Assembly: GCA_963817895.1 (NCBI GenBank)
Contig: CAWFQB010000005.1
Span: forward strand, 192,001 to 256,000
Length of the DNA: 64,000 bases
Origin: an uncultured Chthonomonadaceae bacterium
GTDB lineage: Bacteria; Armatimonadota; Chthonomonadetes; Chthonomonadales; Chthonomonadaceae
Direction: 5' to 3'
The notes under the pieces were generated by a model. The model ran no database searches and was not told where the DNA came from. It saw nothing but the letters and a program-made list of their open reading frames with translations. Every line of letters begins with the position of its first letter. The stretch's first letter is position 1. The position numbers and the translations under genes were made by a program. This document shows, piece by piece, positions 6,105-48,127 of this stretch.

Positions 6105-7040
6105 ATGACGCAATCAACGCGCAATTCGCATCAACCGAATATATCACGGGAACCACTCGATGTAATTTTGCCTGCCGGAGGGCGCATCACGGGCGAGTTC
6201 GCGCAAATGGCGGGTACGGACATCAAGGCGCTGATCGAATTCAACGGGCAGACGATTTTACGCCGCGCCATACTCACGCTTCGCGCCACCAACCGCGTCG
6301 GGCGCATCGCCGTTATCGGCCCTGAACCCGTCATGACCGAAGCGCGGGAATGTGGCGCGGAGTTGCTATTGCCCGAAGGCGACAGCGGCCCTGATAATAT
6401 TCTGCGCGGGTTGCATGGGTTACAGGGAACAGGAGAGATACGAGATACGAGATACGAGATACGAGAAGAGGAGGGTTCATCCTTCATCCTTCATCCTTCA
6501 TCCTTTGCCAAAGTCCTTATTCTAACGACGGATTTACCGTTCCTGACGGCGGACACGCTGACGGCGTTTCTGGATGCCTGCCCGCCAGACGCGGATATTG
6601 CGGTTCCTATTATGACCGAGCCGGAATTTAACGGGCGTTTTCCGGGTACGCAAAATGAATATGTTCGGCTGCGGGATGGCGGGTATACTTTGGGCTGCGC
6701 GTTTGTCTTGAACGGCGAAATCCTGCTGCGCAACGAGGCGCATCTACGCGCGCTGTTCGCGGCCCGCAAAAACCAGTGGCAAATGGCGCGGCTAATCGGA
6801 TTCGGAACCATACTGAAGTTCGCCACCCGACGGCTGACCGTAGAGGAATTGGAAACGCGGGCGAGCGCGATTGCCGGATGCAGGGGCGTTGCCGTTCGCC
6901 ATTCTCCGCCCGAACTGGCCTACGATATTGACCTGCCCGCCGAATACGAATATGCCCGCCAACAGGCCGCTAAGAGAGCGCAGCCCGATTTAGCCATTGC
7001 CGCGCCCACTCTTGAGGGCGTTCAGGAGATACCCCGATGA
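6105..7040 (+). CDS. MobA-like NTP-transferase family protein with in-frame repeat insertion
   Basis: ILPAGG..KALIEFNG, TTDLPF, YDID motifs; insert at 6423-6505. Confidence 0.8.
   Translation: MTQSTRNSHQPNISREPLDVILPAGGRITGEFAQMAGTDIKALIEFNGQTILRRAILTLRATNRVGRIAVIGPEPVMTEARECGAELLLPEGDSGPDNILRGLHGLQGTGEIRDTRYEIREEEGSSFILHPSSFAKVLILTTDLPFLTADTLTAFLDACPPDADIAVPIMTEPEFNGRFPGTQNEYVRLRDGGYTLGCAFVLNGEILLRNEAHLRALFAARKNQWQMARLIGFGTILKFATRRLTVEELETRASAIAGCRGVAVRHSPPELAYDIDLPAEYEYARQQAAKRAQPDLAIAAPTLEGVQEIPR
6436..6503 (+). repeat. Intragenic module (AGATACG)4-N12-(TTCATCC)4, copy 1
   Basis: Read directly; translates [24 protein letters not shown]. Confidence 0.95.
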
Positions 7041-8374
7041 GTGTTCCGCCCGAAGAGCAACGGCAAGCCGCCACACCCGAAGAACCTCCGTTTGGAAATG
7101 CCGAAGTAACGGAAGAAGCCCCTCCCCTGCCGTCCGGCGAGTTCACTGCCAGAACCCTGTTGTACAGCCTTGCCAATCTCGGCTACGGCATGTTCTTCGC
7201 GCTCAACAACTACGTGCTGACGCTGTATTTGCAGCATTTGGGCGCGGGCGGCGTTCTCATCGGGCTGATGGGCAGTTCTCATTCCATTGAGGGCGCGGTA
7301 ATTCAGCCGATTATCGGCGCGGCAAGCGACCGCCTGCGCACAAAATGGGGGCGTCGTCGTCCGTTTATACTGCTGTTCACGCCCATTTCCGCGCTGTTTT
7401 TGCTGCTCACGCCTTACGCCAGTCACCTTCCGACGCAGCCGCATGTGTTGGGCGCGCCCCTGTATTTAGCCGTTGTTGTCGTGTGCGTGTTTCTGTTCAC
7501 GATTGCCTTTAACGTCGCGCAAGACCCCTATCAGGCGTTGATGCCCGACATTATACCCAAACCGCAACGGGGGCGGGCGGCGGGAATATGGGCGTTCATC
7601 GGCGTCATCGGGCAGGCGTTGCTGCTGCTGCTGCCCATGCCCGCGTATCAGAAATTCGGGCTTTGCGCGGTTGTGATGCTGATAACGACCCTGCTGACAT
7701 GCTGGCAAACGCGGGAACCGAACCTGCCGCCGGAACCACACAAACTCGGAGCCTACGCGCAAATCGCGGTTGCGCTCAACGGTCTGCAAACGCTGCGGCA
7801 GGCGCGAAAATCGCTGCTCACCCTGTTCTTTTCCGGGCTGGGCATCGGGGCCGTGCTGCCGTTTCTAACCGTTTTTGTGGTTGCCATCACCAAATGCTCG
7901 GATCAGGAGGCGCAAAAAATGGCGCTGGTTCTGATGGTTGCCACCGCTATTTTCGTTCTGCCATTCGGCTGGCTGTGCGACCGCATTGGCCCCAAGCGCG
8001 TGTTGATGATCGGATTGGCCTTGATTGTGGTTGCCGCTTTGAACGGGCTTTGGGTACATACATTGCCGCAGATAGCCGCGATTCTGGCGATTGCCGGGAT
8101 GGGCAACGCGGCGCAATCGGCCTCGGCGTATCCCCTGCTGACGCGACTTGTGCCTCGTGACGAAGTAGGGTTTTATACCGGGCTGCAATCCACCGCGCTT
8201 TCTATAGCGCAGCCTGCAACGGCTGTGATTACCGGAATATTGGTGGACAGGGGCGGGTATCGCTGGATATTCGCGGTTTGCGGGGTCAGCATCGGCATCG
8301 CCCTGTTCGTGCTGTCACTGGTAAAAGTGGAACAGGCCGCGCAGGAAGTGCGCGTTCGCGAGGGGGAACACTGA
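7037..8374 (+). CDS. MFS transporter (GPH/sugar-symporter-like)
   Basis: About 12 hydrophobic segments; GAASDRLRTKWGRRRPF motif; ATGA overlap with the upstream gene. Confidence 0.85.
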   Translation: MSVPPEEQRQAATPEEPPFGNAEVTEEAPPLPSGEFTARTLLYSLANLGYGMFFALNNYVLTLYLQHLGAGGVLIGLMGSSHSIEGAVIQPIIGAASDRLRTKWGRRRPFILLFTPISALFLLLTPYASHLPTQPHVLGAPLYLAVVVVCVFLFTIAFNVAQDPYQALMPDIIPKPQRGRAAGIWAFIGVIGQALLLLLPMPAYQKFGLCAVVMLITTLLTCWQTREPNLPPEPHKLGAYAQIAVALNGLQTLRQARKSLLTLFFSGLGIGAVLPFLTVFVVAITKCSDQEAQKMALVLMVATAIFVLPFGWLCDRIGPKRVLMIGLALIVVAALNGLWVHTLPQIAAILAIAGMGNAAQSASAYPLLTRLVPRDEVGFYTGLQSTALSIAQPATAVITGILVDRGGYRWIFAVCGVSIGIALFVLSLVKVEQAAQEVRVREGEH

Positions 8375-9321
8375 TGGCGAAACGCGCCCTGAGCGCCCTT
8401 GTCGGCGTCTGCATTTTTCTTGGATTGTGCTTCGGCGGGCTGCTGCCGTTTACGATTGGCGCAACGGTGGTGGCACTGTTGGCATCGTGGGAGTGGATCG
8501 CGGCGTATGGCAAAGCGCGGCAAGCAGAGGCTACTCCCGGTTACGCCCCGCGCCTGCCCGCCCTGCAAAATGGCGTCAATATTCTGCTTACCTGCGCGGG
8601 CGTAGCGATTCCGTTTCTGGCGTATGCCGCGCAGCAAAAAAATAATGGACTTGGCAAGTGGTCTTTAGCGGACGGCCTGAACGCCTTCGCCCTGTTCGCG
8701 CCCGTGCTGTGGTTTGCCATGCGAACCCGCCTCGCCGCCCACACGGGTAAAGCGTTGGGCTACATGCGCCAATGGTACGGACTGGTCGGCTTTGTGTACA
8801 TCGGCCTGCTGATGAGCAGCCTTGTGTGGATGCGCGGCCTCAGTTTCCACTACGCGCAAACCAGCGATCTCGTGTCCTTCAACCTGCTCAACGTTGTCCC
8901 GTTCGGCCTGACGGAAGTGGGCGCGTGGCTGATGCTGTTCGTCGCCGTGTGCGTGTGGGCGACGGATACGGGCGCGTACCTGTTCGGCAAACGCTTCGGC
9001 AGGCGCAAGCTCGCGCCCACGCTGTCACCCGGCAAAACCGTTGAGGGTTCCCTCGGCGGAATCGCGCTGGCGCTATTAACAAGCGCCCTCTTCGGCGCGT
9101 GGATACATCTTCCCCTCGGCCACAGCCTCGTCATCGGCGCGATTGCGGGCATCATGGGGCAGTGGGGCGACCTGTTTGAGTCCGCTCTGAAACGCGAACT
9201 CGGCCTCAAAGACTTCGGCAACATCATGCCCGGACACGGGGGGGTTTTAGATCGCTTCGACAGCCTGCTCTTCGTCACCCCGCTCGCCTACTGCTACCTG
9301 CACTTCCTCGCGGGCTTTTGA
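8374..9321 (+). CDS. cdsA: Phosphatidate cytidylyltransferase
   Basis: DTGAY.FGK.FG.RKLAPTLSPGKTVEG; GDLFESALKRELGLKDFGNIMPGHGGVLDRFDS signature. Confidence 0.93.
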   Translation: MAKRALSALVGVCIFLGLCFGGLLPFTIGATVVALLASWEWIAAYGKARQAEATPGYAPRLPALQNGVNILLTCAGVAIPFLAYAAQQKNNGLGKWSLADGLNAFALFAPVLWFAMRTRLAAHTGKALGYMRQWYGLVGFVYIGLLMSSLVWMRGLSFHYAQTSDLVSFNLLNVVPFGLTEVGAWLMLFVAVCVWATDTGAYLFGKRFGRRKLAPTLSPGKTVEGSLGGIALALLTSALFGAWIHLPLGHSLVIGAIAGIMGQWGDLFESALKRELGLKDFGNIMPGHGGVLDRFDSLLFVTPLAYCYLHFLAGF

Positions 9322-9325
9322 GGCA

Positions 9326-9511
9326 GAAGAGATTTCACCACCAAGACACAAAGAACACCAAGAAATACAAAGAAGAAAAAAATAAGAACATGCCACAAAT
9401 GCGGATTGCGCATAAAGATACCGAATACAGCGCAAGCGAACCGGTATTAGCAGGCTTCATACCTTCTTGTATTTCTTGGTGTTCTTTGTGTCTTGGTGGT
9501 GAAATCTCTTC
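9326..9511. repeat. Near-perfect ~49-bp inverted repeat between convergent genes (MITE/terminator-like)
   Basis: gaagagatttcaccaccaagacacaaag... at 9326-9376 pairs with ...ctttgtgtcttggtggtgaaatctcttc at 9463-9511. Confidence 0.9.
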
Positions 9512-9523
9512 CTGTTTGCCGGT

Positions 9524-10351: not shown

Positions 10352-10365
10352 TCTGAAGGCGGCTG

Positions 10366-14448: not shown

Positions 14449-14469
14449 CATGAAGAGGCGGAGGAGGCA

Positions 14470-17038: not shown

Positions 17039-18336
17039 AGAGAAGTCACGAGAATTGTTTGCGCAGGCGACGCGGTTATTCCCGGCGGCGTGAATTCGCC
17101 CGTGCGGGCGTTTCGAGCGGTGGGCGGCGATCCCCTCTTCATCGAGCGGGGCGAGGGCGCGTACCTTATAGACGCGGATGGCAACCGCTATCTGGACTGC
17201 ATCGGGTCGTGGGGGCCGCTGGTATTGGGACACGCGCACCCGCAGATTATGGAAGCCATTCAGGCGCAACTTGCGAAGAGGAACCACATTCGGAGCGCCG
17301 ACCGCGCTGGAAGTGCAGCTTGCGCAGATGATCTGCGAGGCGGTTCCGAGCGTACAAAAAGTGCGGATGGTATCGTCCGGCACGGAAGCCACGATGAGCG
17401 CGATTCGGGTGGCACGGGGCTATACGGGCCGGGATAAAATCGTTAAGTTTGAAGGGAATTATCACGGCCACGCGGATTTTCTGCTTGCCAAAGCCGGTTC
17501 GGGAATCGCCACATTGGGACTGCCGGAGTGCGCGGGCGTTCCCGTTGCTGCCACAGCCGACACGCTCACACTTCCTTACAATGACGCGCAGGCGGTTCGC
17601 GACCTGTTCGACGCGCAGGGCGATACCATCGCCTGCGTGATTGTGGAACCCGTTGTCGGCAACATGGGCTGTGTGCCGCCCCATGCCGATTTTCTGCCCG
17701 CCCTGCGCGAAGTGACGGCCGCCAACGGCAGCGTGTTGATTTTCGATGAGGTGATGACCGGCTTTCGGCTGGCATACGGCGGGGCGCAGGAGCGCTACGG
17801 CATTGTGCCCGACATGACCACGCTGGGCAAAATCGTGGGCGGCGGTCTGCCGCTTGGCGCGTATGGCGGCCATGCCGAAATCATGGACGCGGTTGCGCCT
17901 GTCGGCCCGGTTTATCAGGCGGGAACCCTTTCCGGCAATCCGGTTGCGGTGACGGCAGGGTTAGCCATGCTGCGCCTGCTGCGCGAACACAAATCCGAAC
18001 ATCTACCCGCGTCTGGAAACCATCGGGGCGCGTCTCGCGGACGGCCTGCGCCGACTCGCCCGAAACCACAACGTTCCCGTCGTCGTCAATCAATTTGGCT
18101 CGATGGTGACGGTGTTCTTCACGGACGCGACCGAAGTAATCAACTACGCCGACGCTAAAACAAGCGACACGGTTCGTTTCGGCAACTGGTTCCGCGCCCT
18201 GCTCGAAGCTGGCGTCTACTGGCCCCCATCCCAATTTGAAGCCGCCTTCCTGTCCGCCATTATGACGGACGACGACATCGCGTTCCTGCTGGCGGGAGCG
18301 GAGAAGGCTTTTGATGAGATACGAGATAGGAGATAG
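17031..18336 (+). CDS. hemL: Glutamate-1-semialdehyde 2,1-aminomutase (frameshifted)
   Basis: [56 protein letters not shown]. Confidence 0.93.
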
Positions 18337-18395
18337 GAGATACGAGTAAATACCGTTGGTTTTACTGCCTCGTATCTCGTATCTCCTATCTCATC
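18313..18395. repeat. Palindromic heptamer element (AGATA[C/G]G)n...(C[G/C]TATCT)n; supplies the hemL stop codon
   Basis: Arms at 18313-18346 and 18369-18395. Confidence 0.9.
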
Positions 18396-22942: not shown

Positions 22943-23054
22943 AGGTTGTTAGGTTGTTAGGTTGTTAGGCGTTTGGTTTGCAGAGACAAAGAGTATGCGA
23001 GTAACCCCATTGCCTGACAACTAACAACCTAACAACCTAACAACCTAACAACCT
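22943..23054. repeat. Palindromic octamer element (AGGTTGTT)n...(AACAACCT)n
   Basis: Arms at 22943-22969 and 23013-23054; ends immediately before ATG 23055. Confidence 0.9.
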
Positions 23055-24212
23055 ATGAAACCCCCAACCCTTACCGGCCTTGACGCGCTACAGCGCGACG
23101 ATTTTAAGCCGCTGCATGACCGACGCATTGGTCTTGTCACCAACCATACGGGCCTGAACAGCGCGGGAATGGCAACCGCCGATCTGCTTCACGCGCACCC
23201 GAAAGTGCATCTTGCCGCCCTGTTTGGCCCGGAACACGGCATACGCGGCGCGGTAGATGACAAAGTGGCGGACAGCGTGGACGCGCAAACCGGCCTGCCC
23301 GTTTACAGTCTGTACGGGCAGCGGACGCGCCCCCTGCCCGAACAGCTTGCCCCTCTGGACATGCTTGTTTTCGATATTCAGGATGTGGGCGCGCGGTATT
23401 ACACCTACATCAGCACACTTGGGTTGTGCCAGGAAGCGGCGGCGCAGGCCCGTTTGCCGTTTCTCGTGCTGGATCGTCCCAATCCTATTGGCGGGCTTGC
23501 CGTCGAGGGGCCGTTAGCGGACGCGGATAAACTCAGTTTCACCTCCCATCATCCTATTCCCATTCGGCACGGCCTGACGGTAGGGGAGATGGCGCGGTTG
23601 TTTCAGGCGGAAAAACCTGCCCTGAACCCTGCAAACGAACCGCCCTCCCCGCTGATAATCGCGCAGGTGGAGAACTGGCGGCGCGCGGAAGCGTGGGATC
23701 AAACTGGCCTGACGTGGACCAACCCCTCGCCCAACATGCGCTCGCTGACGCAGGCGTTTCTCTATCCCGGTGTGGGCCTGCTGGAATTCACCAATGTTTC
23801 GGTCGGGCGCGGCACGGACACGCCGTTTGAAATTGTCGGCGCGCCCTGGATGGACGGGCGACAACTGGCGCAGCATTTGAACGCGCAAAACCTGCCCGGC
23901 GTCCGATTCGTGCCTGTTCACTTCACGCCCCATTCCAGCAAACACGCCAATCTGCCGTGTGGCGGCGTCAACATCATCATTACGCGCCGCGACCAGTTCC
24001 GCCCTGTCCGAACTGGTTTCGCCCTTGCCTGCGGATTGCGCGATCTTCATTCCGAACAGTGGGAACACGCGCGCTACATCACCCTGCTTGCCAACACTTC
24101 TCTTTACAACGCCCTGCTGCAAGGAGCCGATGCCGCCAAACTGGAGCAACTCTGCGCCCCCGACACGCAAGCCTTCCGCAAGCGCTGCGCGGGGCATTTG
24201 CTGTATGAGTGA
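23055..24212 (+). CDS. DUF1343 / NamZ-like exo-beta-N-acetylmuramidase
   Basis: GLVTNHTG, LFGPEHG, FDIQDVGARYYTY, LDRPNP, PSPNM, SVGRGT. Confidence 0.88.
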   Translation: MKPPTLTGLDALQRDDFKPLHDRRIGLVTNHTGLNSAGMATADLLHAHPKVHLAALFGPEHGIRGAVDDKVADSVDAQTGLPVYSLYGQRTRPLPEQLAPLDMLVFDIQDVGARYYTYISTLGLCQEAAAQARLPFLVLDRPNPIGGLAVEGPLADADKLSFTSHHPIPIRHGLTVGEMARLFQAEKPALNPANEPPSPLIIAQVENWRRAEAWDQTGLTWTNPSPNMRSLTQAFLYPGVGLLEFTNVSVGRGTDTPFEIVGAPWMDGRQLAQHLNAQNLPGVRFVPVHFTPHSSKHANLPCGGVNIIITRRDQFRPVRTGFALACGLRDLHSEQWEHARYITLLANTSLYNALLQGADAAKLEQLCAPDTQAFRKRCAGHLLYE

Positions 24213-24279
24213 GATACTAGATACGAGATACGAGTAAATTCCTCTGGCTCTCGTATCTCGTATCTCGTATCTCGTATCT
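24211..24279. repeat. Palindromic heptamer element (AGATACG)n...(CGTATCT)n
   Basis: Arms at 24211-24234 and 24250-24279 fill the whole intergenic gap. Confidence 0.9.
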
Positions 24280-27722: not shown

Positions 27723-27851
27723 GGTAGGTGTCAGGTATTAGGTGTCAGGTGTCAGGTATCAAGCAATGCGCGGCGCATTATGGCGTCCATTGCTCTGTCC
27801 GGTGTTACTATGTGTATTGTACCATGAATGGCCGAATACAAGGAAATACAA

Positions 27852-30800
27852 ATGGCGTCACTCCGTTCTTTCCAAACCATCTCTGTCTTGTCTTCCGGTG
27901 GATTACTCCTCGGCGCGTCCCTGTGTTTGCTGGCCGCCTGCGCCGCGCCGGGGCAGGGGCAAAAGGCAGCAGGACAGGGACAGGAAACAGGGAACACGGA
28001 ACAGTAGACAAGGCTTCATCCCTCATCCCTCATCCCTCATCCCTGAACATTCCCCTTCCCCACCCGGAACGCCGCGCTTTCTGGTCGTTTCAGCCGGTCA
28101 AGAACCCGAAATTGCCTCCGGTGAAAAATATGGCATGGTGCAAAAACCCGATTGACCGCTTTATTCTGGCCGGACTGGAAGCGAAAGGTTTGAAGCCCGC
28201 GCCGCCTGCGGATCGCCGTACCCTGATCCGCCGCGCGAGTTTCGACCTGGCCGGCCTGCCGCCAACCCCCGAAGACGTGGAAGCGTTTGTCGCGGACAAA
28301 TCCCCCAACGCCTGGGAAAAAGTCATAGACCGGCTGCTGGCCTCGCCCGCGTATGGCGAACGCTGGGGGCGGCACTGGCTGGACGTGGTCCGCTACGCCG
28401 ACAGTCTGGATGCGCGGGGCGTGGGCAGCGAGGGCGACATCAGCGAAGCCTGGCGCTACCGCGACTGGATTGTCAACGCCTTCAACCGCGACTTGCCGTA
28501 CAACGAGTTCATGAAGTATCAGGTGGCAGGCGATTTGATGCCAGAGGGGTCAGGGAGACAAGGAACAGAACGCGCATCCAACCACCAACCACCAACCACC
28601 AACCACCTCAACCCTGACGGCATCGTCGCTACCGGTCTGCTGGCTATCGGCAACTGGGGGAACGGGGACGCGGACAAGGATAAAATTCTGACGGACATTG
28701 CCGACGATCAGGTGGATGTTATCAGCCGGGGCATGATGGGCCTGACGGTCGCCTGCGCCCGCTGCCATGACCATAAATTCGATCCGATTTCCACCAAAGA
28801 CTATTACGGGTTGGCGGGGATTTTCTTTAGTACGCACATTCTGCCCAAACTCGCGCCCAAAGGCGCGGGGGAGGGAATTCCTGCGCGTTTCGCTTGACAC
28901 TCCCGAAGCCAAAGCGCGGCGCGAACAGTACGCGCAGGAGATGGCGCAGGGCGCGGCTGAAATTCAACGAGAGCGCGAAAAGATTTTGAGCGCGTATGCG
29001 CGGGGTTTGTTGCCGCAAACCGCCCGGTACGTGCAGGCCGCGTGGCAGTACGCGCACCGTCCGCATCTCGCAGGCCGCGCAAACGCCGGAAGCCTTTGCC
29101 GTCTCGCAAAACTTGCAGCCCTGGGCGTTTCGGCAGTGGAACGATTTTCTGAAACCGGGCGGCTACCCGCTGATGCTGCTGCCGCAGGCGGAAGTCTCCG
29201 GCATGAAGGGCGTGAGCGCGTGGCGCGGCAAGGCGGACTGCCCGAACCTGCTTGTCAACGCCAACGATACGCCGCGCAGCCTCAGTTCCCTGACCCTTCC
29301 GCCCCGTTCCGTGTGCGTCCATCCCGGCCCGACGAACGGCGTGGTCGTGGCGTGGCAAAGCCCGATTACGGGAACCGTGCAGATTACCGGGCGCGTCGTG
29401 GATGCCGACCCCAACGGCGGCGACGGCATCGCATGGGCATTGGATCAGCGGAGCGCGGGCGGAGCGCGGGAACTGGCGACGGGCGAGTTTCCCAACGGCG
29501 GGGCGCAGGATTTCGCGAAGGGGCATAACGCCAACGCTCTGCAAACCGTATCCGTGCATTCAGGCGACCGCATTGAACTGGCCGTCCTGCCCAAAGAAAA
29601 CTACGGCTTCGACACAACCGTTGTAGACCTGACTATTATAGAAGTTGGCAGTAACAACAGTTCGCCTTCTTCCAAATTGGCAGTCAACGGCATTAACAAC
29701 TCTTTGCTGTCAACATTGGGAGTGAGCTTTATCAACAACTCTTTTCTGCCACCAGTGGGAGTGAACCTGAATAACGATAACTCCCCTCTCCCAAAATTGG
29801 GAGAGGGGTTGGGGTGAGGGCCACTCCTCGCAGTTGGAACCTCGCGCATGACCTGATACCCGACCCGCTGCAAGGCGGCAAGGGCAACCCGCACAACGAC
29901 AGTTACGGCAATGCGGGCGTGTGGCGCTTTGAGGATATGGCGGATCGGCATCGCAGCGCCACACCCGGCGCGGTCTTCAATCCCGCTCTGGCGCGGGTGC
30001 AGCAGCTTGTTGGAGACGGAAGCGGGGCGGCAAGCGCGATTCCCGCCGACGCGCAACAGGCCATTGACACGTTCGCGCGTTCTTTCACGATCAGCGATTC
30101 AGGCAGCCCGTTCGCCATCCGCAACGCCTCGGAAGAAACACTGTTGTCTGCCGGAATCCCGAACGCTTCTGGCGGGTTTGCAGGCGAAACTGGACGCATT
30201 GCGCAAAAACGCGCCGCCCATGCCCGGCTTCGCCAACGCCGCGCAGGAGGGTGGCGTTCCCGAAAGCCCACACGCGGGCGTTCACGACGTGCGCGTCCAC
30301 ATCCGGGGCAGTTACGCGCGATTGGGCGACATGGTTCCGCGCCATTTCCCGGTTGTGATTGCGGGCGAAAACCAACTGCCGATTACGCAGGGCAGCGGTC
30401 GCCTGCAACTGGCCGAGTGGCTGGCAAGCGACACGCACCCGCTCACCGGTCGCGTGTGGGTCAATCGCGTATGGCAGCACCACTTCGGGCAGGGCATTGT
30501 CCGCACCCCAAGCAACTTCGGCTTTCTCGGGGAAAAACCCACGCACCCGGAACTGCTGGACTGGCTGGCAAGCCACTTCGTTGCAAAGGATGAAGGGAAG
30601 ATACGAGATACGAGATACGAGATACGAGGTGGGGAGGATTCATCCTTCATCCTTCATCCTTCATCCTTTGCCTGCGGTTGGTCTACCAAAAAGCTGCACA
30701 AGCTGATGCTGATGTCGGCCACCTATCAGCAGGCGAGCGAGGGGCGGACGGAAACTCTGAAGGCGGACCCGGACAATCGGCTGGTGGGGCGCATGAGTCG

Positions 30801-31296
30801 GCAGCGTTTGGAGGCGGAGGCCGTGCGCGACAATCTGTTGGCCGTGTCGGGGAAACTGGACACGAGCATGGGCGGGGTGGCGTACCGCGATTTTGCCATT
30901 CCGCGCCGGACGCTGTATTATATGACTATCCGTTCGGACAGAGCCGGGTTTGGAACGCTTTTCGACGGGGCCAATTCGACCGCCTGCGTGGAAAAACGGA
31001 CGGTATCTACGGTTGCGCCGCAATCGCTGTACCTGCTGAACAACCCGTTCGTTCTCGACCAGACCCGCGCTTTTGCGCAACGGCTGGCGAAAGAGATTCC
31101 CGAAGGCGCGACAAGCGATCCTGCCCGTATCCGTCGCGCCTACTTACTTTTGTACGCCCGTCCCGCCACAGCGGAAGAAGTTCACATCGGCCTTTCGTTT
31201 CTACAGCGCGTCCGCGCTACTGTAAAGGATAATGGCGCGTGGGAGCAGTATTGCCATATTCTGCTGTGCGCCAATGAATTTGTGTACGTGGACTGA
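27852..31296 (+). CDS. DUF1549/DUF1553 (PSD1) planctomycete-type protein, probable lipoprotein; several frameshifts and repeat inserts
   Basis: Signal peptide ending LAAC; WSFQP, NPIDRFI, YGERWGRHWLDVVRYAD, CARCHDHKFDP, RVWVNRVWQHHFGQGIV, APQSLYLLN, NEFVYVD. Confidence 0.85.
29653..29822 (+). repeat. Degenerate 39-42-nt tandem units ending in an intact CTCCCCTCTCCC-N-GGGAGAGGGG..GGGGTGAGGG palindrome, inside the CDS
   Basis: Units begin AACAAC at 29653, 29695 and 29734, and AACGATAAC at 29773. Confidence 0.7.
30599..30666 (+). repeat. Intragenic module (AGATACG)4-N12-(TTCATCC)4, copy 2
   Basis: Translates [24 protein letters not shown] inside the DUF1553 domain. Confidence 0.95.
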
Positions 31297-31365
31297 TGGG
31301 CTGACCGGGAAAAACGTATTCGTCGCACGGGGCGTTTGTCCGTAGCGCCGGGAATGACCGCGCGC

Positions 31366-31551
31366 CGGGTACAGAGAACGTACCCGTCTGTGTAGCCTGC
31401 GGCTAAGCGTCCTTCGGACGCAAATGCCTGAGAAGAATGGAAACATTGTTCGGGAACGGGATTATCGGGAAAATTAAACGTATGTTGTACCCTCCGCGTC
31501 CGAAGGACGCCTGGCGGAACGCCACACAGATGGGTACGTTCTTTGTACCCG
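31366..31551. repeat. Inverted doublet of 56-bp REP-like units
   Basis: 31366-31421 (reverse) and 31496-31551 (forward); hairpins GCGTCCGAAGGACGC and GGGTAC-N7-GTACCC. Confidence 0.9.
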
Positions 31552-31646
31552 GAAATCATTGCGAGCGACTATAACCAACAACACCCGGCGCGTGTTCCAC
31601 CATACTAACGCTTTACCCACACAATTATCAAGCAGGAGCCTGAAGA

Positions 31647-32069
31647 ATGAGGCGCAGCAAAAATGAGATGGACCTTCATATTGTATGGGCAACCAAACAC
31701 CGCGAAGAGTTGCTGACTCCGGAGGTTGAACGGGCGGCGTACCGTTGTATCATCAGCGAGGCGCAAAATATGAAATGTAACATTCGCGCCATTAATGACA
31801 TGCCCGACCATGTACACTTGCTGATGAAAATGCCGCTCACGCTCGCCCTTTCCGATGTAATGAAGCGGCTTAAAGGTATTTCTTCAGCCATGATCAATGA
31901 TTTACCTGCGCAACCGCGCTTTCGCTGGCAGGAAGGCTATGCTGTTTATTGTGTCTGTCCCTCCCATGTTCAGGAAGCGGTGGACTATATTGCCAACCAA
32001 AAACAACACCATGCCGACGGAACCACAATCTCGGAATGGGAAGAAGCCGACGAAGAAGTAGAACCCTGA
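31647..32069 (+). mobile_element. tnpA: IS200/IS605-family (Y1 HUH) transposase, RAYT-like
   Basis: HIVWATKHRE, MPDHVHLL (HUH), RWQEGY, YIANQKQHH (catalytic Tyr). Confidence 0.9.
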
Positions 32070-32095
32070 CACCTATTCAGCGCAACGACGCATCC

Positions 32096-32151
32096 GCGTC
32101 CGAAGGACGCTTAGCGGAACGCTACACAGACGGGTACGTTCTCTGTACCCG
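32096..32151 (+). repeat. 56-bp REP-like unit, copy 3
   Basis: gcgtccgaaggacgcttagcggaacgctacacagacgggtacgttctctgtacccg. Confidence 0.9.
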
Positions 32152-32187
32152 TCCTGCGCCTGATATATCCATACGGACAAGCTCACT

Positions 32188-33639
32188 ATGAAACAAACCG
32201 ATCCCCGCCACAATCAACAACCCGCTTTCCTGTCCCGCCGCGATATGCTGCGAACCTGCGGAACCGGCTTCGGCATGCTAGGTTTAGCAAGTTTGCTATC
32301 CAGCGAATCGAAGGCTGCAGGAGCAGGACACTCTCAACCCTCACCCCCTCTTACCGGAAAAGCGCCCATGTATCCGGCGCGGTGCAAGAGGGTGATATTC
32401 CTGTTCATGGCGGGCGGGCCGTCGCATGTGGATACGTTCGATCCCAAGCCGCGCCTGATAACCGACAACGGCAAGCCGCTCCCCTTCGCCAAACCTTCGC
32501 TGGAGCGCACCAAAACCGGCAATCTCCTCGCGTCGCCATTCGGCTTCAAGAAGTACGGGCAGTCCGGCATTGAGGTGTCCGACCTGTTTCCCCATGTGGC
32601 GCGGCATGTGGATGACCTGTGCGTTATCCGCTCGATGGTGGCGGACAACATCAACCACAACGGCGCGTGTCTGCAAATGAACACGGGCGAACAGGCGTTT
32701 TCGCGCCCCAGTTTGGGTTCGTGGCTCACCTATGGGCTTGGCAGCGAAAACCAGAATCTGCCCGGTTTTATGGTTATCAGCCCCGCGCAGCCCGCGCAGG
32801 GCGCGCCCCTGTGGAGCAGCAGTTTTCTGCCCGCTACCTATCAGGGGACGCTGGTTTCCGACCTGAAAAACCCCATTGCCAACCTGACGCATCCCGGCCT
32901 GACGGACGGACAGCAGCGCGACCAACTGGATACTCTGCGCCAACTCAACGAACTGCATCACCAACAGCGTCCCGAAGACACGCAGCTTTCCGCCCGCATC
33001 GCCAGTTACGAACTTGCGTACCGGATGCAGATGCAGGCCCCCGAAGCGTTCGACGTGGGGAGTGAAAGCGCGGAAACCAAAAAACTGTACGGTATGGACG
33101 AGAAACCAACCGAGATTTTCGGTACGCAGTGTCTCATGGCGCGGCGGCTCGTGGAACGGGGCGTCCGATTCGTGCAGGTGTACCATACCGAAACCGCCAA
33201 ACGTTCCAGTTGCCAGTTGTGGGATCAGCACGGTGGCCTGAAAACGGAACTGCCCGCCAACTGCGTGGCAACCGACAAGCCTATCGCCGGACTGCTGGCC
33301 GATTTGAAAGCGCGGGGATTGCTGGAAGACACGCTTGTTATCTGGGGCGGCGAGTTCGGGCGGACGCCGACAGCCGAAAGTCAGGACGGGCGCGAGCATC
33401 ACCCGTTCGGCTTCACGATGTGGATGGCGGGGGGCGGCGTCAAGGGCGGAATCGTACACGGCGCGACCGATGACTTCGGCTGGCACGCCGCGCAGGACAT
33501 CGTTCACGTCCACGACCTCCACGCCACCATTCTGCACCTGATGGGACTTGACCACGAAAAACTCACGTACTTTTATGGAGGCCGTAATTATCGCCTGACG
33601 GACGTTTACGGGAAAGTTGTAAAAGAGATTCTGGCATGA
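32188..33639 (+). CDS. DUF1501 family protein with Tat signal
   Basis: SRRDML twin-arginine; IFLFMAGGPSHVDTFDPKP, GEFGRTP, HVHDLHATILH. Confidence 0.92.
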   Translation: MKQTDPRHNQQPAFLSRRDMLRTCGTGFGMLGLASLLSSESKAAGAGHSQPSPPLTGKAPMYPARCKRVIFLFMAGGPSHVDTFDPKPRLITDNGKPLPFAKPSLERTKTGNLLASPFGFKKYGQSGIEVSDLFPHVARHVDDLCVIRSMVADNINHNGACLQMNTGEQAFSRPSLGSWLTYGLGSENQNLPGFMVISPAQPAQGAPLWSSSFLPATYQGTLVSDLKNPIANLTHPGLTDGQQRDQLDTLRQLNELHHQQRPEDTQLSARIASYELAYRMQMQAPEAFDVGSESAETKKLYGMDEKPTEIFGTQCLMARRLVERGVRFVQVYHTETAKRSSCQLWDQHGGLKTELPANCVATDKPIAGLLADLKARGLLEDTLVIWGGEFGRTPTAESQDGREHHPFGFTMWMAGGGVKGGIVHGATDDFGWHAAQDIVHVHDLHATILHLMGLDHEKLTYFYGGRNYRLTDVYGKVVKEILA

Positions 33640-35722: not shown

Positions 35723-35839
35723 AGGAGTAGGTTGTTGAGTTGTTAGGTTGTTAGTTGTGAGGCGCTACAAACAAGTATAGCCCCTGAAACCATATTAACC
35801 TAACAACCTAACAACCTAACAACTCAACAACCTACTCCT
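35723..35839. repeat. Palindromic (GGTTGTTA)n...(TAACAACC)n element; contains the stop of the BadF-type gene
   Basis: Arms at about 35723-35762 and 35797-35839. Confidence 0.88.
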
Positions 35840-37290: not shown

Positions 37291-40071
37291 ATGCCCTCTC
37301 TGACAGAAGCGATTTACAGCCTGCCGACGGAACGCCTGCGCAAACTGGTGCAGGCGCGGCGGCTGGACGCGAAAAAACTCGCGCTGATTCCCAACAAACG
37401 ACAACTGGCGCAGTTTCTCAGCGGTGAATTGAACAAGCCCGTCTCGGTCTCGGAAGCCATTACGCAGTGCAACGCCCGCGAACTCCGCCTGCTGCAACTG
37501 CTGATGGTGACGGAACTCGGTCAGGCGATGTCGTGGGAGAAACTGCTGGAGATGGCGGGCGGCGCGGCTCTCAACGATGCTATCGGCGCGGTCATGGCGC
37601 GGCTGGAAGAGCTGGGACTGGCGTTTCGAGTAGGCAAAAACGTCCTGATGCCCGACCCTGTGCGCTCCTATGTGCCGGCTTCCCTGTCGGACCGCTACAC
37701 GCTGGAACGCTGTCTGGAACAGTACGACGCGATCAGTCTCAAACGCATTTGCGCCACTCTGGGATTGCCGCAGGACACCAAGCCGATCAACATCAGGGCC
37801 ATCAAAGCGGTTCTGCTGGAACCCAACGGCATCGCGAGCATGAAAAAACCGCTGACGGAAGACGAAGTGGCGGTGCTTGAGTTCATCATGCAATCCAACG
37901 GGGACGCGACGGCTCTGGAAGTGGCGACGGTCGTGCTGAAGGGACAAACGGAAGATTTCTTTCGCTACGACTGGCAAAACCGCTGGAAAATGGGCAATGA
38001 GCGCAACGCCATTGACACCCTTCTGGCGCGGGGTATCCTGCATGTCGTCGCGTATGGCTATGGCTACAATCTGTTTCTGATTATACCCGGCGACCTGCTG
38101 CGGGTTCTGGCGGGCGGCGGCGACATGACTTTCTGGACCGCGCCGCCCCTCGCGCCGGTTCCCCTGAAAGCGCCCCCGGATTATACCACGCGGCATCCGG
38201 GCCTGCTGCGCGATGTGGTGAGTTTAATGGGGTTTGTCAGCGTTCAGGACGCCGCGCGAACGAGTACTGGTCATATCCATAAAACAAGTTTGAAAAATCT
38301 GGCGCGGACGCTGAGTATTCCCGAAGAGCGCTATGCCAGTTTCCTGTACGCCGTGTGCCGCGAATCGGGCCTGGTTTCCGCGCAAACCGAACGGCAGGTT
38401 TATAAAATGACGGATACGGGCGCGTCGTGGCTGCATTGGGACAGCCTGACGCAACTCCAAACCCTCGCGGACGCCTGGCGCAAAGGCATGTTGTGGAGCG
38501 AGATGTACAACGACCCGCTGCATAAAGCCAACGATTACCGTTCACAGGAGGCCGTTGTTCGGATGCGGCAGTCCGCGCTCAGTATCGTCGTCCAGACGCC
38601 CCCGCAAAACGCCCCGTCAGGCGTTGCCGCACCCATCACCGCAACCGGCAAAGCCGTCGGGGGTAAGGCTGCGGCAGGGAAAGTCTCTGCGGCACAAACC
38701 GCGCCCCTCGCCGCGCCAACGACAGAAAGCGCCGCGCCCCCGGCAACAAACGACACGGACGCGCTGTTCTACAATCTGGATTCCATTACGGAAACGCTGG
38801 CGTTCCAAACGCCCCTCCTGCTGGCGCAAAGCGCGTCTATGGGACCCGATCTGGTTCCCGCGCCCAACGTGTTTATCCGCCTGCTCGTGTGCGAGTGCCT
38901 GTACTGGCTCGGCCTGGTGGAACTGGCGGGGGAGGGGAGCAGGGAGCAGGGAACAGGGAACAGGGAAGAGCTGCAATCGGCAATCGGCAATCGAAAATCG
39001 TCAGTAGAGAATTCCTCAACTCGTGGCGCAGCCGGTCAGAAGCAAATGTTGCCGCAGGCCGAGGGGTACCGCCTGACGCCGATGGGAAGGTTTTTGCTGG
39101 GCGTAGAGGGCGCGGCGACGCCCCCGCCCGATCCTCGCGAAGACCAGCTTATCGTGCAGGCGAACGGCGAGATATTTCTGTCGCCCTATCTGGAACCCGC
39201 CACTCTGTACCATCTGCTTGCCATGACTGACCCGCCCGCGAAGGGAGGAACGGGCAACACGGTCAGCCTGACACGCGAAAGCATCCGCCGCTGTCTGGAT
39301 CAGGGCGCGAACACGCGAGACATTCTGGCGTTTTTGCAGGCGCATGCGCGAACGGGGATTCCGCAAAACGTGGAATACCTCATCAACGACGTGGGCGGCA
39401 AGCATGGTCATATCCACATCGGCAGGGCGCAAATGTACGTGCAGGTGGATACGCCCCTGTTGCTCAAAGAACTGGAAGCCCGCCGGGAACTGAAGCCCTA
39501 TTTCGTGCGCAGCCTGAGCGATACCGTCGCCATTTTGAAGGCGGACGATCCCGATAAGCTGCTGCGCGAACTCCGCAAAGCCGGGTATCTGCCCGTTTCC
39601 GACGATGAAACGCCGCGCACCGCGCTGAACCTCAAACCCAAACCCGCGCCGCCCGCCGCGCCCCCGATCACGCATGTAGACGACAAGAGGACCAACCGCC
39701 CCGCCAAAGCGGATGCCACTCTGGATTGGGATCGTATTGCGCAGGAGGATGGCAAGCCCTGGGAGAAAGGCAACACGGCGTCCACAGCCATTGTCGCCAA
39801 CAGCGGCGGACCCACTACCGGAACCACCAGCAACCTGGTACGCAATCAAACCCTGATAAAAACCCTGCTGATGCAGGCCAGCAAAACCAATACCGTTGTT
39901 GAAATCGAATATCTGGAAATGGGCAAGCCTACTCTGGCCCGCCGCGAAGTGGAACCGGAGCGCGTCATTGGCGGCATCCTCAGCGCGTATGACCGCCTGA
40001 CCGGAGAGCATCAAAACTTCAACATCTCCCGCATCCAGTGGGCGCGCCTGACCGGAGAAATATTCGAGTGA
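37291..40071 (+). CDS. XPB-type helicase-associated (Helicase_C_3) domain protein with C-terminal WYL-like domain
   Basis: IVQANGEI...LTRESIRRCLDQG...FLQAHARTGIPQNVEYLINDV; C-terminal VEIEY...RREVEP...AYDRLTGEHQNFNISRI. Confidence 0.78.
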   Translation: MPSLTEAIYSLPTERLRKLVQARRLDAKKLALIPNKRQLAQFLSGELNKPVSVSEAITQCNARELRLLQLLMVTELGQAMSWEKLLEMAGGAALNDAIGAVMARLEELGLAFRVGKNVLMPDPVRSYVPASLSDRYTLERCLEQYDAISLKRICATLGLPQDTKPINIRAIKAVLLEPNGIASMKKPLTEDEVAVLEFIMQSNGDATALEVATVVLKGQTEDFFRYDWQNRWKMGNERNAIDTLLARGILHVVAYGYGYNLFLIIPGDLLRVLAGGGDMTFWTAPPLAPVPLKAPPDYTTRHPGLLRDVVSLMGFVSVQDAARTSTGHIHKTSLKNLARTLSIPEERYASFLYAVCRESGLVSAQTERQVYKMTDTGASWLHWDSLTQLQTLADAWRKGMLWSEMYNDPLHKANDYRSQEAVVRMRQSALSIVVQTPPQNAPSGVAAPITATGKAVGGKAAAGKVSAAQTAPLAAPTTESAAPPATNDTDALFYNLDSITETLAFQTPLLLAQSASMGPDLVPAPNVFIRLLVCECLYWLGLVELAGEGSREQGTGNREELQSAIGNRKSSVENSSTRGAAGQKQMLPQAEGYRLTPMGRFLLGVEGAATPPPDPREDQLIVQANGEIFLSPYLEPATLYHLLAMTDPPAKGGTGNTVSLTRESIRRCLDQGANTRDILAFLQAHARTGIPQNVEYLINDVGGKHGHIHIGRAQMYVQVDTPLLLKELEARRELKPYFVRSLSDTVAILKADDPDKLLRELRKAGYLPVSDDETPRTALNLKPKPAPPAAPPITHVDDKRTNRPAKADATLDWDRIAQEDGKPWEKGNTASTAIVANSGGPTTGTTSNLVRNQTLIKTLLMQASKTNTVVEIEYLEMGKPTLARREVEPERVIGGILSAYDRLTGEHQNFNISRIQWARLTGEIFE

Positions 40072-40075
40072 AAGA

Positions 40076-40184
40076 TAGGTTGTTAGTTGTCAGGTTGTTA
40101 GTTGTCAGGGGCAGGCTATCGGCTTTGCTCACATCTGCCAACTAAATGAACTAACAACCTGACAACTAACAACTAACAACCTAA
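40076..40184. repeat. Palindromic (GTTGTTAG/GTTGTCAG)n...(CTAACAAC)n element
   Basis: Arms at 40076-40109 and 40151-40184. Confidence 0.88.
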
Positions 40185-40293: not shown

Positions 40294-41097
40294 ATGACAA
40301 ACTGCCGAAAGTATGTTAGAATAAACGGCCTGTGTGGGAAAGAAGAAGAGAAGACAAGAGAAGACGAGAAGACGCAACGCATATCTTCATCCTTCATCCT
40401 TCATCCTTCATCCTTTGCTTTCACCCTGATCGAGTTGCTCGTGGTCATTGCCATCATTTCCATTCTGGCGGCGATTCTGTTTCCCGTCTTTGCGCAGGCG
40501 CGGGCAAAGGCGCGGCAAACAGCTTGCCTGTCCAACATGCGGCAGATGGGGTTTGCCGTGCAGATGTACGCGCAGGACGTGGATGAAACCCTGCCGCTGG
40601 CCGCAACCGCGACGGCAACAGGTTTTCTGAACTGGCACGACCTGCTGGATCCTTACGTAAAGAATAAACAGGTGTGGATTTGTCCCGACTCGCAATCGCC
40701 CATCGTGGACATCTACGGCAAGCCGGTCTGCCACTACGGCTGGAACGCCTATTACCTGAACCGGAACGGATTCAATCCGAACGTTCCGATAGATGTAAAC
40801 AACATCTACACGATCAACAACGCGCCCGGCGTGACGCTGGCCGAAGCTATGAAACCCGCGCATCTTGTGATAATGGGCGACAACCGGGGCATTGACGGCA
40901 AGATACCCGCCAACCATCTCAGCACCTATATGCTGCCGCCCTCGCAGCCGGATGCCGATTACTGGGGTCGCCCGGAACCGCGCCACACGGCAGGCGTGGT
41001 CGTCGGCCTGATGGACGGACACGTAAAGTGGTTTCATCCGGGTGGCTTTTACGTAGGGCAAAATCCTGCCGATGATTGGTTCGCGCTGAATCAGTGA
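40294..41097 (+). CDS. Prepilin-type N-terminal cleavage / DUF1559 / H-X9-DG protein (start uncertain)
   Basis: [52 protein letters not shown]. Confidence 0.88.
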
Positions 41098-44935: not shown

Positions 44936-45195
44936 AACTTCCCCTTTGGATCGGAACCCTTCCCTGCAATCGTAAGAAAGCGGCTTCCTGTATTGAACGT
45001 CCGGTTTTAGTATAACGGCTGCAACGGCAACGCGGTTGCGCCTAGATTACCGGTTTTATTAAAATCCAGCACCATTGCGAGTAACGCTATTCAAAGTGAC
45101 ATGTGACGCCATTTTATGCCAATTTGAAAACTAATTTAATCAGATAAACGGGCGGCCAATCTATAACCAGGGCCTACAAGACGACTGGCAGGACG

Positions 45196-48127
45196 CTAAC
45201 GCGCTCCAATCAGCGCGAACGATGCCCAGTAGTAGGGATGCGGGAATTGTTCGCGCAATTCCAACTGCGATTCTCGCAGCGCGGCGGCTTTGCCCATGCC
45301 CCCCGCCAGACGCGCATAAAAGGCGGGCATCAATTGCGCGGTTGTCGCGTCGTGCGCGGCCCACAGGCAGGCCAGCACGGAACGCGCCCCCGCCGCCAGA
45401 AATCCGCGCGCCAGGCCGTGCAGTTCGTCCCCGGCTGTGACCAGATTCATGCCCGTATCGCAGGCGGCAAGCGTGGCGAGATCGCACTCCAGACGGCGAT
45501 GATGCAAATCGTAAGCGATAAGCCAACCGTCCCACAGGCGCAGGCCGGAAAACAGGGGATTGTCCTGCCGAAACAGCGCGTGCGTGGCAAAATGCAGATA
45601 GCGGTACGTCCCGTCCTGGGGTACAGCCGCAAGCGTGGCGTCCGCCTCCTGTAAGACATTCAGGTTTGCGATCTGCCCCCGCAGGGCGTCCGCTTCCGCC
45701 CGCACCTGCGCAATCCCCTCATCGGAAATGCCAAGCAGCAGCGAGTCGGCAGCGGTCACATCCGGGCGCAGGCGGCAGTTGTGCCAGATCGCGCTGCTCG
45801 GCGCCTGCGTACACTCCCAATCGTCCAGCACATAGCGTTCGCCGTCGTACAGCGCGTGAAACGGAATCTCGTGCAGAATGCCATGCGGAATAATGGTCAG
45901 TCTGTTTTCCGCTCCGTCTTCTAATCTGTTTTCTAACAGGAGCGGGACAACCGGTTCCCACAGCAGTTCATGCAGGCGATTCAGCACTGCGCGCGCCGCG
46001 TCGCCCATCTGCGCCGCGAAACGCTCTGAGTACACGCGCGAACGCATTTTCGTCCATTGAAAATGCAGGCGCTGAAGCAATTCCCGTACTTCAGCAAGGG
46101 AAGCGAGGCTGCGAACCATCTGTATTCGGTCGCGGCTGATGATACACGCCAGCACTTCTTCTTTTAGAAGCATATACTCGACAATCTGTTCCCCGTTTAG
46201 CAGGGTTTGCAGGCCGTCCAGCGTGAGCAGGGTCGAAGTCATGGCGTGTTGGTGGCTGCCATTGCGCGATTGCAGCCGCCGCTGAACGCGCAAGAACTCC
46301 TGTTCCAGATGCCGGCTTTGGGACGTGGGCTGCGGGTGGCTTCCATGCAGGCGCGCGTCGTTTTCGCCGAACTGTTCCCGCGTGGCGTGGTTCCAGTTCA
46401 ATTGGGCGCGTAAATCTTCCAGTTGCTGCCATTGCGCCTGCTCATCCGGTTCCGGGGAATGGGGCAGTCGCGTGGCGGACATCTGTTCCAGCAGGGTGCG
46501 CGATTTAACGCGCTCGATCAGGTGAAAAGCCTCTTCCCGCGATTGGGCCGCGTCACTATCCAGAAGCAGTCCCAGCATTTCTTCATGCAACCGCATCTTA
46601 TCCTGAAAGAAATGGATGCGGAAATCCTCGCCGGGCATTAATTGGCGCAGGCGCTCGACCGCATCCGAGGCGCGGCGATAGCGCGTCAGGGCAACGCGGG
46701 GCTTTTTCGCGTTCATGGCGCTGCGGGCCAGCGCGGTTTCGATACGCCACTCCAGAGAGACCCACCCATTCTCCTGCGCTTCCAGCAGCAACTGCTGTAG
46801 GGTGCGCGTGGGGCGCTGCCCCTGCGCAACCCCGTGTTCGGCGCGCAACAGCCGCGCCTGCGCAATCCCCAACGGCAATTTGTGCCGCCGAAACGTCCGC
46901 AGCGAAGCGTTGAGTTGAGGGTGAAACAGGGATGAAGGATGAAGGATGAAGGATGAATCCTCTTCTGCTCGTATCTCGTATCTCGTATCTCGTATCTTCT
47001 CTCCCCCTCTTCCCTCTTCTGCGGCACGGTGAAGATGCTGGGCGCGGAGGAGTTGGATACGCGCCGCGCCGACGGCATTTTGTTCCCGACTTCAGGGACT
47101 GCTCGGCCTCATCGAGAATCTGGAAGGCTTCTTCGGGGCGGGATTGGGCAAACAGCGCGCCTGCCATTCCGACCTGACAGCGTGAAATTTCCAGCGTCAT
47201 CTTGTACTCGCGCAAAACGGGAAGGGCGCGTTCGTAAGCCGCCTGCGCTTCGGGGATCAGGTTCAATGCCAGGTACACATCGGCAATTTCGCGGTCGCAC
47301 TTGGCGAGGTCTTTAGGCTGCTGAAGCGTTTCAAAACGCTGCCGCGCTTTCTCAAAGGATTGCAGCGCGTCGGCGTAGCGGCCCGACATGAACAGCAAAA
47401 AGCCCGTGTTGCCGTCTATCCCCGCCACCAGTAAATCTATGCCGCCCGCTTCCAGAACCGGGCGGGCATCGGCGTACATTTGCAGGGCTTCCGGCACACG
47501 GTTGAGGTGCGTGAGCATGTTGCCGATATTCATTTTCAGGCGCGCGATTGACAGTTGAACCGAGGGCGCGGCGGTGTCGGCGGATTGAAAGTAATCCAGC
47601 GCGCGCTGCCAGCAATTCAGGGCTTCCTGATACGATTCGCGGTGAAAGTAGACGGCTCCGGCATTGGCGACGGCTTTGGCCGCGTCTTCGTTCGCGCCCA
47701 GGTCGCGCAGGCGTTTTTCCAGATCACGCGCCTGCCGCGTGGCTTCCGCATAGCGCCCCAGTTGCGCCAGCGCTTCAATCCCGGCGATGGGAATTTGCGC
47801 GGCAAGAAGCGCGTCTCCGGCTTTATTCGCCCACTCCACGCCCTCCGCAAAGCACTTCAGCGCGGATTCCAACTGTCCCTGCGCCCGCAGCGCAACGCCC
47901 CGCGCCCGTAATGCCCAGGCGCGCGGTCTGGCCGTGTTCAGATGTTCTGCCAGTTGCCAGGCGACTTCGGCGATACGCACGGCTTCCGCAGGGTTGCTCC
48001 CGGCCACTCCCCGCGCCCGTTCCGCCAACTGGAACACGTCCTCATCCGCAGCCGCTTCGCTTTGAAGCAGTGATTGTCGCTTCTCCGGGGAAGCGTCCAG
48101 CAGGCGTTGTTGAAGTTCGGTAGACAT
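45196..48127 (-). CDS. TPR-CHAT caspase-like protease (~975 aa; one apparent frameshift near 47092)
   Basis: N-terminal TPR helices; ERVKSRTLL, IIPHGILHEIPFHAL, LHFATHA (His), TLAACDTG (Cys), HPYYWASF. Confidence 0.9.
46930..46997 (-). repeat. Intragenic module (AGATACG)4-N12-(TTCATCC)4, copy 3
   Basis: In the CHAT-domain frame it reads [24 protein letters not shown]. Confidence 0.95.

Follow-up and report, generated by a model that had tools for sequence, protein, structure and literature searches.

In a 64,000-nucleotide (nt) stretch of DNA from an uncultured Chthonomonadaceae bacterium (contig CAWFQB010000005.1, positions 192,001 to 256,000; hereafter the window), three unrelated protein genes carry the same 68-nt module, and we found that short tandem arrays, arranged in pairs, form a family throughout the genome, of which this module is the commonest present in-gene combination. 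Members of the family occupy persistent, polar sites with swappable arms, filtered within genes by the peptides they encode, a description that is well supported in two genomes. The module alone is not special; the hybrid form with its arm-by-arm grammar appears to be new, judging from our literature search, and the module exposes the wider system behind it.

Three modules and a genome-wide family of paired arrays

Each module consists of four AGATACG units (D; its complement is written d), a 12-nt spacer and four TTCATCC units (H), with no mismatch in either arm, and the pattern was absent from 100 shuffles. An initial annotation, made from the sequence alone, had placed these modules in an NTP-transferase, a DUF1553 and a TPR-CHAT protein and had argued that independent slippage cannot explain them; we concur on both points, the host families by Pfam being NTP_transf_3, DUF1553 (PSD1) and TPR plus CHAT. 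All three copies are in the sense orientation, with a peptide that begins with E or K followed by IRDTRYEIR-x4. The same sense peptide had been reported for all three proteins, which is correct with the proviso that copy 3 shares its frame with the CHAT half alone: as assembled, the TPR-CHAT gene occupies two frames (open reading frames (ORFs) 46598-48127 and 45196-46878), and the break lies about 80 nt upstream of the module. The two arms are non-complementary, as had been noted. Copies 1 and 3 showed no RNA fold (z +1.85 and -0.13), and copy 2 folded only via the residual inverted ends (z -2.6) of an older hairpin, whose left arm is reduced to a single stop-free unit (KDEG).

The genome of the window (labeled G000; 7.48 Mb in 14 contigs, 81% complete) is rich in small insertions and deletions. 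Its nearest named matches are a Chthonomonadales MAG, with 49% protein identity, and proteins from Chthonomonadaceae, which probably puts the host in that group. Relative to the congener G002, a gap with a length other than a multiple of three (non-3n) was present in 226 of 567 aligned genes, and 451 clusters of such gaps were found in 732 kb. An extra base at 30149, in the DUF1553 gene, is missing from relatives' contigs in two sequencing runs. On these two grounds the frame breaks in the TPR-CHAT and DUF1553 hosts are probably assembly errors, the one in TPR-CHAT being not proven. The load amounts to about 0.6 non-3n gaps per kb of G000 coding sequence versus G002, most being one additional base, and broken genes in this assembly are to be distrusted in general.

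Exact arrays of at least three units in G000 numbered 557 with a period of 7 and 174 with a period of 8, compared to 31 with a period of 6 and 7 with a period of 9, and their lengths peaked near 30 nt. With mismatches allowed, the census rose to 1,650 arrays, mainly four units long, which represent 38 units and fall into 1,081 clusters. We call G- or purine-rich arms left arms and C- or pyrimidine-rich arms right arms, and a pair with two arms from different families a hybrid (D-H for the module). Neighbouring arm pairs were strongly polar: 463 of 569 were left-right and 2 were right-left, the 56 right-right and 48 left-left pairs being inflated by an initial polarity rule that mislabelled AAAATCG and AATCGGC. 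No family formed inverted pairs in both orientations, among 29 families in G000 and 21 in the compared part of G002.

The proposal that D-H is dispersed proved right, with 31 copies in the genome. The fixed copy number and spacer length described for it hold for the three copies in the window and not genome-wide, where an exact 4-12-4 layout is seen in 6 of the 28 strict matches. In addition to these hybrids, G000 has palindromes of D (55) and of H (14), and 187 arms that lack a D or H partner. Palindromes have a strong RNA fold and hybrids have none; two palindromic parents of the D arm lie in the window itself (Table 1) and had been missed. Non-coding palindromes begin at the stop codon upstream, the median distance being 1 nt and 181 of 233 lying between -15 and +25 nt, and variant bases common to both of their arms number 150, versus 86 +/- 6 for shuffled partners. 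At two places orthologous hairpins have equal arm lengths and register and another unit (G000 C1:1679346 versus L047; C10:82048 versus L072), and one such G002 hairpin carries an identical variant unit mirror-wise in both arms.

Site persistence and the coding filter

We compared these sites across 41 genomes, including G000 and its congeners G001 and G002. D-H was present in only one of the 41, and in none of the 40 relatives. The exact pattern gave no match in GTDB contigs or in JGI metagenomes, scans that possibly do not include the source genome or very near ones. (AGATACG)3 occurs only in G000, whereas (TTCATCC)3 is equally common in G002, which has a rare one-base relative of D.

The sites themselves are shared with G002. 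Comparisons with this genome cover 2.79 Mb, about a third of it, and orthologous sites were assigned by best flank matches, which may pick paralogues. An array was present in G002 at 227 of the 274 clusters with a matching site, and the exact unit was common to both genomes at 30. For in-frame sites the G002 array was found at 34 of 37, compared to 6 of 836 control genic sites, with an exact unit in common at only 5 of 37; for non-coding palindromes it was found at 60 of 66, compared to 56 of 250 control sites. At each of the eight D-H sites that could be tested, G002 carries different arms. The length difference between the two genomes is a multiple of three at 34 of 37 in-frame sites, versus 25 of 65 non-coding hairpins.

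Individual host proteins display the same pattern and bear out the claim that the module is an insert. At the copy 1 site, 28 of 29 NTP-transferase homologues of relatives have a short loop, and the homologue 2dpw has no loop there; in G002 the GGGAACA family occupies the site. Among closer proteins, P0003 and P0004 have EKEKRR.. plus SSF.., that is, the right arm is kept and the left arm differs from the D plus SSF.. of the window; P0005-P0009 have other arm pairs, and the sister P0002 is empty at the protein level. The copy 2 site holds unrelated arms in G002, and nine DUF1553 paralogues in G000 comprise two empty sites (a 7-residue loop), one other short insert and six different arm combinations. 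Anthranilate synthase is a D-H host outside the window; its nearest relatives retain the outer left arm, the interior being different. The TPR-CHAT orthologues, at 31-44% identity, are too distant to define an empty site. No target duplication was visible at 75-87% flank identity. Taken together, these comparisons show, as judged from aligned sequences, that the loop sites are old and that their arms have been replaced, sometimes as a single arm and sometimes as an inner block. Of the paralogues with a GGWTLEAAE motif, six of eight carry different repeat inserts at one site (G000 C1:1180116, C1, C3, C4:603451, C4:750725, C9).

Within genes the hybrids prevail. By our own hexamer coding model, trained on G000, 68 of 162 hybrids were in frame, the figures for palindromes being 8 of 248 (same-family) and 6 of 53 (near-family); an independent second detector gave 60 of 167 hybrids versus 12 of 196 palindromes in G000, and 34 of 84 versus 14 of 153 in the G002 part. 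Non-complementary hybrids are the in-gene form of the family, and complementary pairs are the hairpin form outside genes. The inserts draw on a small vocabulary, with left words such as EKEKRRKGEEE, KDEGGRMKDE, EIRDTRYEIR, GKGKREKGK and QGTGNREQ. Both D and H also occur with numerous further partner arms, the module is one among many left/right combinations, and a right arm came first in none of 88 multi-arm in-frame inserts. In-gene use of an arm drops with rising hydropathy (Spearman -0.66 over 45 stop-free forms), 19 stop-bearing arm forms are nearly missing from genes, and in-frame GGATGAA arms have a stop-free variant unit in nine of nine cases.

The common sense orientation arises because every frame of the D-H reverse strand contains TGA, and this leaves the shared orientation, cited earlier in favor of the module, as weak evidence. 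One in-frame copy is antisense (G000 C3:342253-342322, KDKGGRMKDESSPSRISYLVSPI); it lies in a long ORF and has a stop-free variant unit in place of the stop. Two D-H copies apparently provide a gene's stop codon. The in-gene inserts are most likely translated as tolerated loops, in agreement with the earlier suggestion of a site tolerated in loops: alignments, together with 2dpw, place the inserts in tolerant loops, their secondary-structure context being inferred. The peptide itself is a passenger, with no support for a functional tag, and annotators should treat SSFILHPSS and IRDTRYEIR as repeat read-through rather than as motifs. These findings indicate that hairpins inside genes are converted by selection to hybrids that do not pair and draw on a fixed set of peptide words, that within one lineage about 190 sites can be swept by a new unit, and that repeat DNA has a concrete route to keep rewriting protein loops.

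Table 1. Paired arrays and host genes in the window (positions are those of the window; a point denotes no strand)
Feature	Position	Strand	Remarks
Host gene, MobA-like NTP transferase (PF12804), intact	6105..7040	+	Insert between LRGL.. and KVLILTTDLP
Remnant of other left arm, GGGAACA family (QGTG)	6423..6435	+	Adjoins D arm on the outside
Hybrid module copy 1	6436..6503	+	D arm, 12-nt purine spacer, H arm
Non-coding D...d hairpin, palindromic parent of D arm	18316..18392	.	RNA fold z -5.7
Second non-coding D...d hairpin	24211..24279	.	Begins at upstream stop codon; RNA fold z -7.5
Host gene, DUF1549/DUF1553 protein, several ORFs as assembled	27728..31296	+	Pfam
Extra in-frame arms of DUF1549/DUF1553 gene	27974..28044	+	GTGNRE..SSLIPHPSS
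Extra in-frame arms of DUF1549/DUF1553 gene	28578..28607	+	NHQPPTTNH
Copy 2 plus 14-bp inverted ends (30583-30596 / 30658-30671)	30583..30671	+	Relic of older GGATGAA/TTCATCC hairpin
Hybrid module copy 2, within DUF1553 domain	30599..30666	+	
Related hybrid, GGGAACA arm + AATCGGC arm (REQGTGNREELQSAIGNRKS)	38935..39000	+	Within ORF 37291-40071; probably in frame, though outside the in-frame class of the strict test
Related hybrid, purine-rich left arm + H arm, prepilin/DUF1559 gene	40341..40415	+	Just before FTLIELL motif
Host gene, TPR-CHAT protein, frameshift near 47080 as assembled	45196..48127	-	
Hybrid module copy 3	46930..46997	-	Peptide in frame of CHAT half

In prepilin/DUF1559 genes (window 40294-41097; G000 C2:87568) the arms lie directly before FTLIELL, in the normally cleaved leader peptide, and one of these genes has seven D units. 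More paired arrays of other units (AGGTTGTT; the 13-nt AGTGAGAGTGAAG type) are intergenic, at 22943-23055, 35728-35834, 40077-40180, 56653-56679 and 61430-61499.

Proposed arm exchange and its alternatives

RecA-type exchange requires a minimum of homology that is close to 30 nt. The explanation we favor, with a probability of about 0.6, combines paired polar arrays, persistent sites, a coding filter and copying between loci. In genes, one arm of nearly every complementary pair encodes stops or a hydrophobic stretch, and two-family pairs therefore persist there, with their frame preserved. Replacement would then occur by non-reciprocal copying, either ectopic gene conversion or template switching, from gene insert to gene insert; the copied unit would be a frame-adapted block (D-spacer or D-spacer-H), and the common neighbouring arm of about 30 nt would supply the homology. 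Because only same-register swaps preserve the frame, one register and one peptide could sweep unrelated proteins. A junction within 3 mismatches of AGAAGGAGAGG was present in 41 of 55 hybrid D arms, compared to 4 of 115 hairpin D arms and 2 of 23 lone D arms. The inner unit of D used one codon phase in 20 of 20 cases, and H did so in 27 of 30, the phase not being the most hydrophilic one. D unit numbers before spacer and H were 1 (three cases), 3 (one), 4 (21) and 7 (one), hence frame-preserving in 25 of 26. Such a common junction and register speak for frame-adapted blocks having been copied from one locus to another, and the return of one and the same stop-free variant in the nine in-frame GGATGAA arms fits this as well.

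We also considered what might have seeded the family. The initial annotation had suggested a co-distributed mobiliser. Reverse transcriptase and HUH genes were rejected in this role, since G001 has both and yet none of the tested arms; its third candidate, a four-helix-bundle gene, shows a weak co-occurrence. The family may have been seeded by repeat-bracketed cassettes with a four-helix-bundle (23S-IVP) gene: both IVP genes of G000, plus one copy in G002, lie between inverted 8-mer arms; G001 has neither IVP nor any of the four tested arm patterns; and IVP is present in all five genomes in which a tested arm pattern matched at least 3 times, versus 18 of 41 genomes overall, a comparison in which kin are not independent. 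For the CAACYMT pattern, a near-symmetric unit, the reversed control also matches and is uninformative. The IVP cassettes begin at the upstream stop codon (G000 C2:440314-440628 and C1:1459284-1459589; L060, G002 C33:57207). Long-gap left-right pairs were rejected as cargo carriers: of 46 with a gap of 180-3000 nt, the 18 examined (gap of at most 900 nt) included one IVP gene. Four of four GxxExxY (PF13366) genes lie in inverted 9-10-mer arms, each with its own unit (G000 C3:444817, C6:254500, C8:26422, C1:43927).

Several observations weigh against the favored explanation. No copying event was observed. The spacers of non-coding hairpins in G000 and G002 (27 sites) are no more similar than shuffled pairs, and replacement of the whole interior by fresh insertion therefore fits non-coding sites equally well. 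Only 16 of the 31 D-H copies are cleanly sense with one phase on both flanks (11 are so on one flank, 3 are unclear and 1 lies in an antisense gene). The H arm is mildly hydrophobic and is yet the top-used right arm (30 uses), which a pure hydropathy filter does not predict. The coding classifier is our own hexamer model, and orthologue calls depend on the best flank match. As to seeding, most of the 18 IVP-bearing genomes lack the tested arm patterns, G000 has only two IVP genes, and GxxExxY genes have inverted arms as well. Rewriting in situ with the spacer kept was considered as a general rule and rejected, non-coding spacers not being conserved, although single cases exist.

A bolder and rather doubtful possibility is a dedicated repeat-rewriting system that reads arm polarity rather than base pairing and swaps blocks of about 30 nt at hundreds of marked sites, possibly a four-helix-bundle ring that works together with a template of RNA or DNA. 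If it existed, it would generate 10-residue peptide words combinatorially in protein loops, and it would explain the four-unit length and the genome-wide unit change of bacterial heptamer repeats.

Alternatively, whole small hairpins, with a new left and a new right arm, may repeatedly enter the center of old inserts, with selection deleting the stop-bearing or hydrophobic arm locus by locus, so that hybrids would be left. Consistent with such nesting, 13 of 14 compound inserts have as their innermost left arm D, the unit new to the lineage; some in-frame inserts of G002 have a complete hairpin inside an older hybrid; copy 2 retains the inverted ends of an older hairpin; and the non-coding spacers just described are not conserved. 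Independent pruning, however, would not yield one 12-nt junction or one register at the frequencies given above, and the complement of D has 1 in-frame use versus 21 of D. As the whole account we regard this as unlikely, but nested insertion of whole hairpins does seem to occur also, and it may supply the new units that are then copied.

We consider it less likely still that the 68-mer is a MITE-like unit (a MITE being a miniature inverted-repeat transposable element) that inserts by itself into new genes. Its 31 copies in one genome of 41, its uniform arms and spacer length, arms that are purer than in hairpins (12 of 20 perfect versus 27 of 104) and the empty site in the sister P0002 are all in its favor. 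Against it stand the other arms at all eight testable G002 sites, the many other partners of D and H, and the lack of terminal inverted repeats, fixed ends or a visible target duplication: the arms are non-complementary and the ends vary. Of the dispersed, propagated or homogenised element proposed initially, the homogenisation between loci is retained, while self-insertion is not, since the sites pre-exist with other arms; the module is lineage-specific. A MITE-like unit homing into pre-existing sites may merge with the explanation we favor.

Three further readings are very improbable. The peptide could be a functional tag (a binding, degradation or localisation signal), as was also suggested at first, given that an identical peptide occurs in about 16-27 unrelated proteins with its frame kept; close relatives, however, have unrelated peptides or nothing at the same sites, the hosts have no evident function in common, and D is missing from 40 relatives. 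There is scarcely a better case for phase-variable switches in which gain or loss of 7-nt units toggles host genes: unit numbers vary and many hosts look frameshifted, but the D unit numbers are almost all frame-preserving and the frameshifts fall mostly outside the arms, in line with the genome-wide indel load. Removal or bypass of the insert in RNA, as in intervening sequences, would suit the non-coding members, which are strong hairpins running from the stop codon toward the next start with a design as in IVP cassettes; it is hardly credible for hybrids, which cannot pair and whose frame conservation and loss of stops and hydrophobic arms imply translation. Collapsed or homogenised repeats in an indel-rich assembly can practically be dismissed, because flanks and spacer are particular to each copy and because the system recurs, with different units at the same sites, in an independent genome and in many independent proteins.

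The mechanism of turnover is open to test in a congener pair that has the system together with one that apparently does not.

Relation to known repeat systems

Heptamer repeats are widespread among bacteria and for the most part lack an explanation; here they take the form of persistent sites with replaceable polar arms. Within the scope of our literature search, outside which most subscription papers lay, we found no description of heptamer pairs in genes with non-complementary arms, nor of fixed sites at which units are replaced. Cyanobacterial short tandemly repeated repetitive sequences are heptamer arrays and have been likened to this family. Repetitive extragenic palindromic (REP) sequences, paired as REPINs and mobilised by REP-associated tyrosine transposases (RAYT), comprise hundreds of short paired repeats, mostly extragenic, with lineage-specific turnover, as here. 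Unlike in such systems, the HUH transposase of the window (one of three in G000 and the only one tested) has its own 59-nt repeat, unrelated to the heptamers. This HUH/Y1 transposase (31647-32069, PF01797) lies within 31359-32158 and is flanked by three copies of a 59-69-nt repeat that is REP/RAYT-like, with 105 BLAST matches in the genome; related contigs omit the block (joint 31292-32188). The PF05635 (23S-IVP) cassettes resemble the module in arm design and polarity, but the module has no gene between its arms, its arms are non-complementary, and neither G000 cassette uses D or H.

According to the parts of the source considered here, Rickettsia palindromic elements are palindromes of about 150 bp with fixed content that are translated in frame and encode one conserved peptide (PMC10969869). 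They share with the module that a lineage-specific repeat lies in frame in unrelated proteins and gives a conserved peptide; they differ in that the module is 68 nt long, non-palindromic and made of tandem units, at sites that outlive their content (PMC10969869, same parts). Nor does the module form the palindrome or hairpin of the Rickettsia type, copies 1 and 3 being unfolded and copy 2 folding via its old ends only.

The TAACTGA repeats of Beggiatoaceae and Cyanobacteria are also comparable. In the portion of the report used here, stop codons set their orientation in ORFs and the repeats encode 7-residue peptides (PMC4679880). Heptamer arrays with a stop-dictated orientation in ORFs are common to both; as far as that portion describes them, however, TAACTGA repeats are mostly unpaired direct repeats at ORF termini, whereas the arrays here are paired, polar, mid-domain and combinatorial (PMC4679880).

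The closest known systems are the paired heptamer repeats of Xanthomonas (GGGAATC) and Nostoc, for which the consulted parts of the report give 70-75 convergent inverted pairs per genome, an intragenic minority of 7-11%, and gene associations that differ between two species (PMC4692102). The likeness extends to 7-nt units, mostly four copies, dispersal and a position near the upstream gene end. There are differences: 38 families occur here versus one motif family there, D and H are not G-quadruplex motifs, and non-complementary pairs, an in-frame peptide grammar and persistent sites with replaced units are not described in the main-text parts of that report (PMC4692102). The present family nevertheless has the defining features of paired heptamer repeats, namely dispersed arrays of about four units and convergent pairs near gene ends, and its hybrids retain the polarity of such pairs while giving up their complementarity. 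We conclude that the module belongs with the bacterial paired heptamer repeats.

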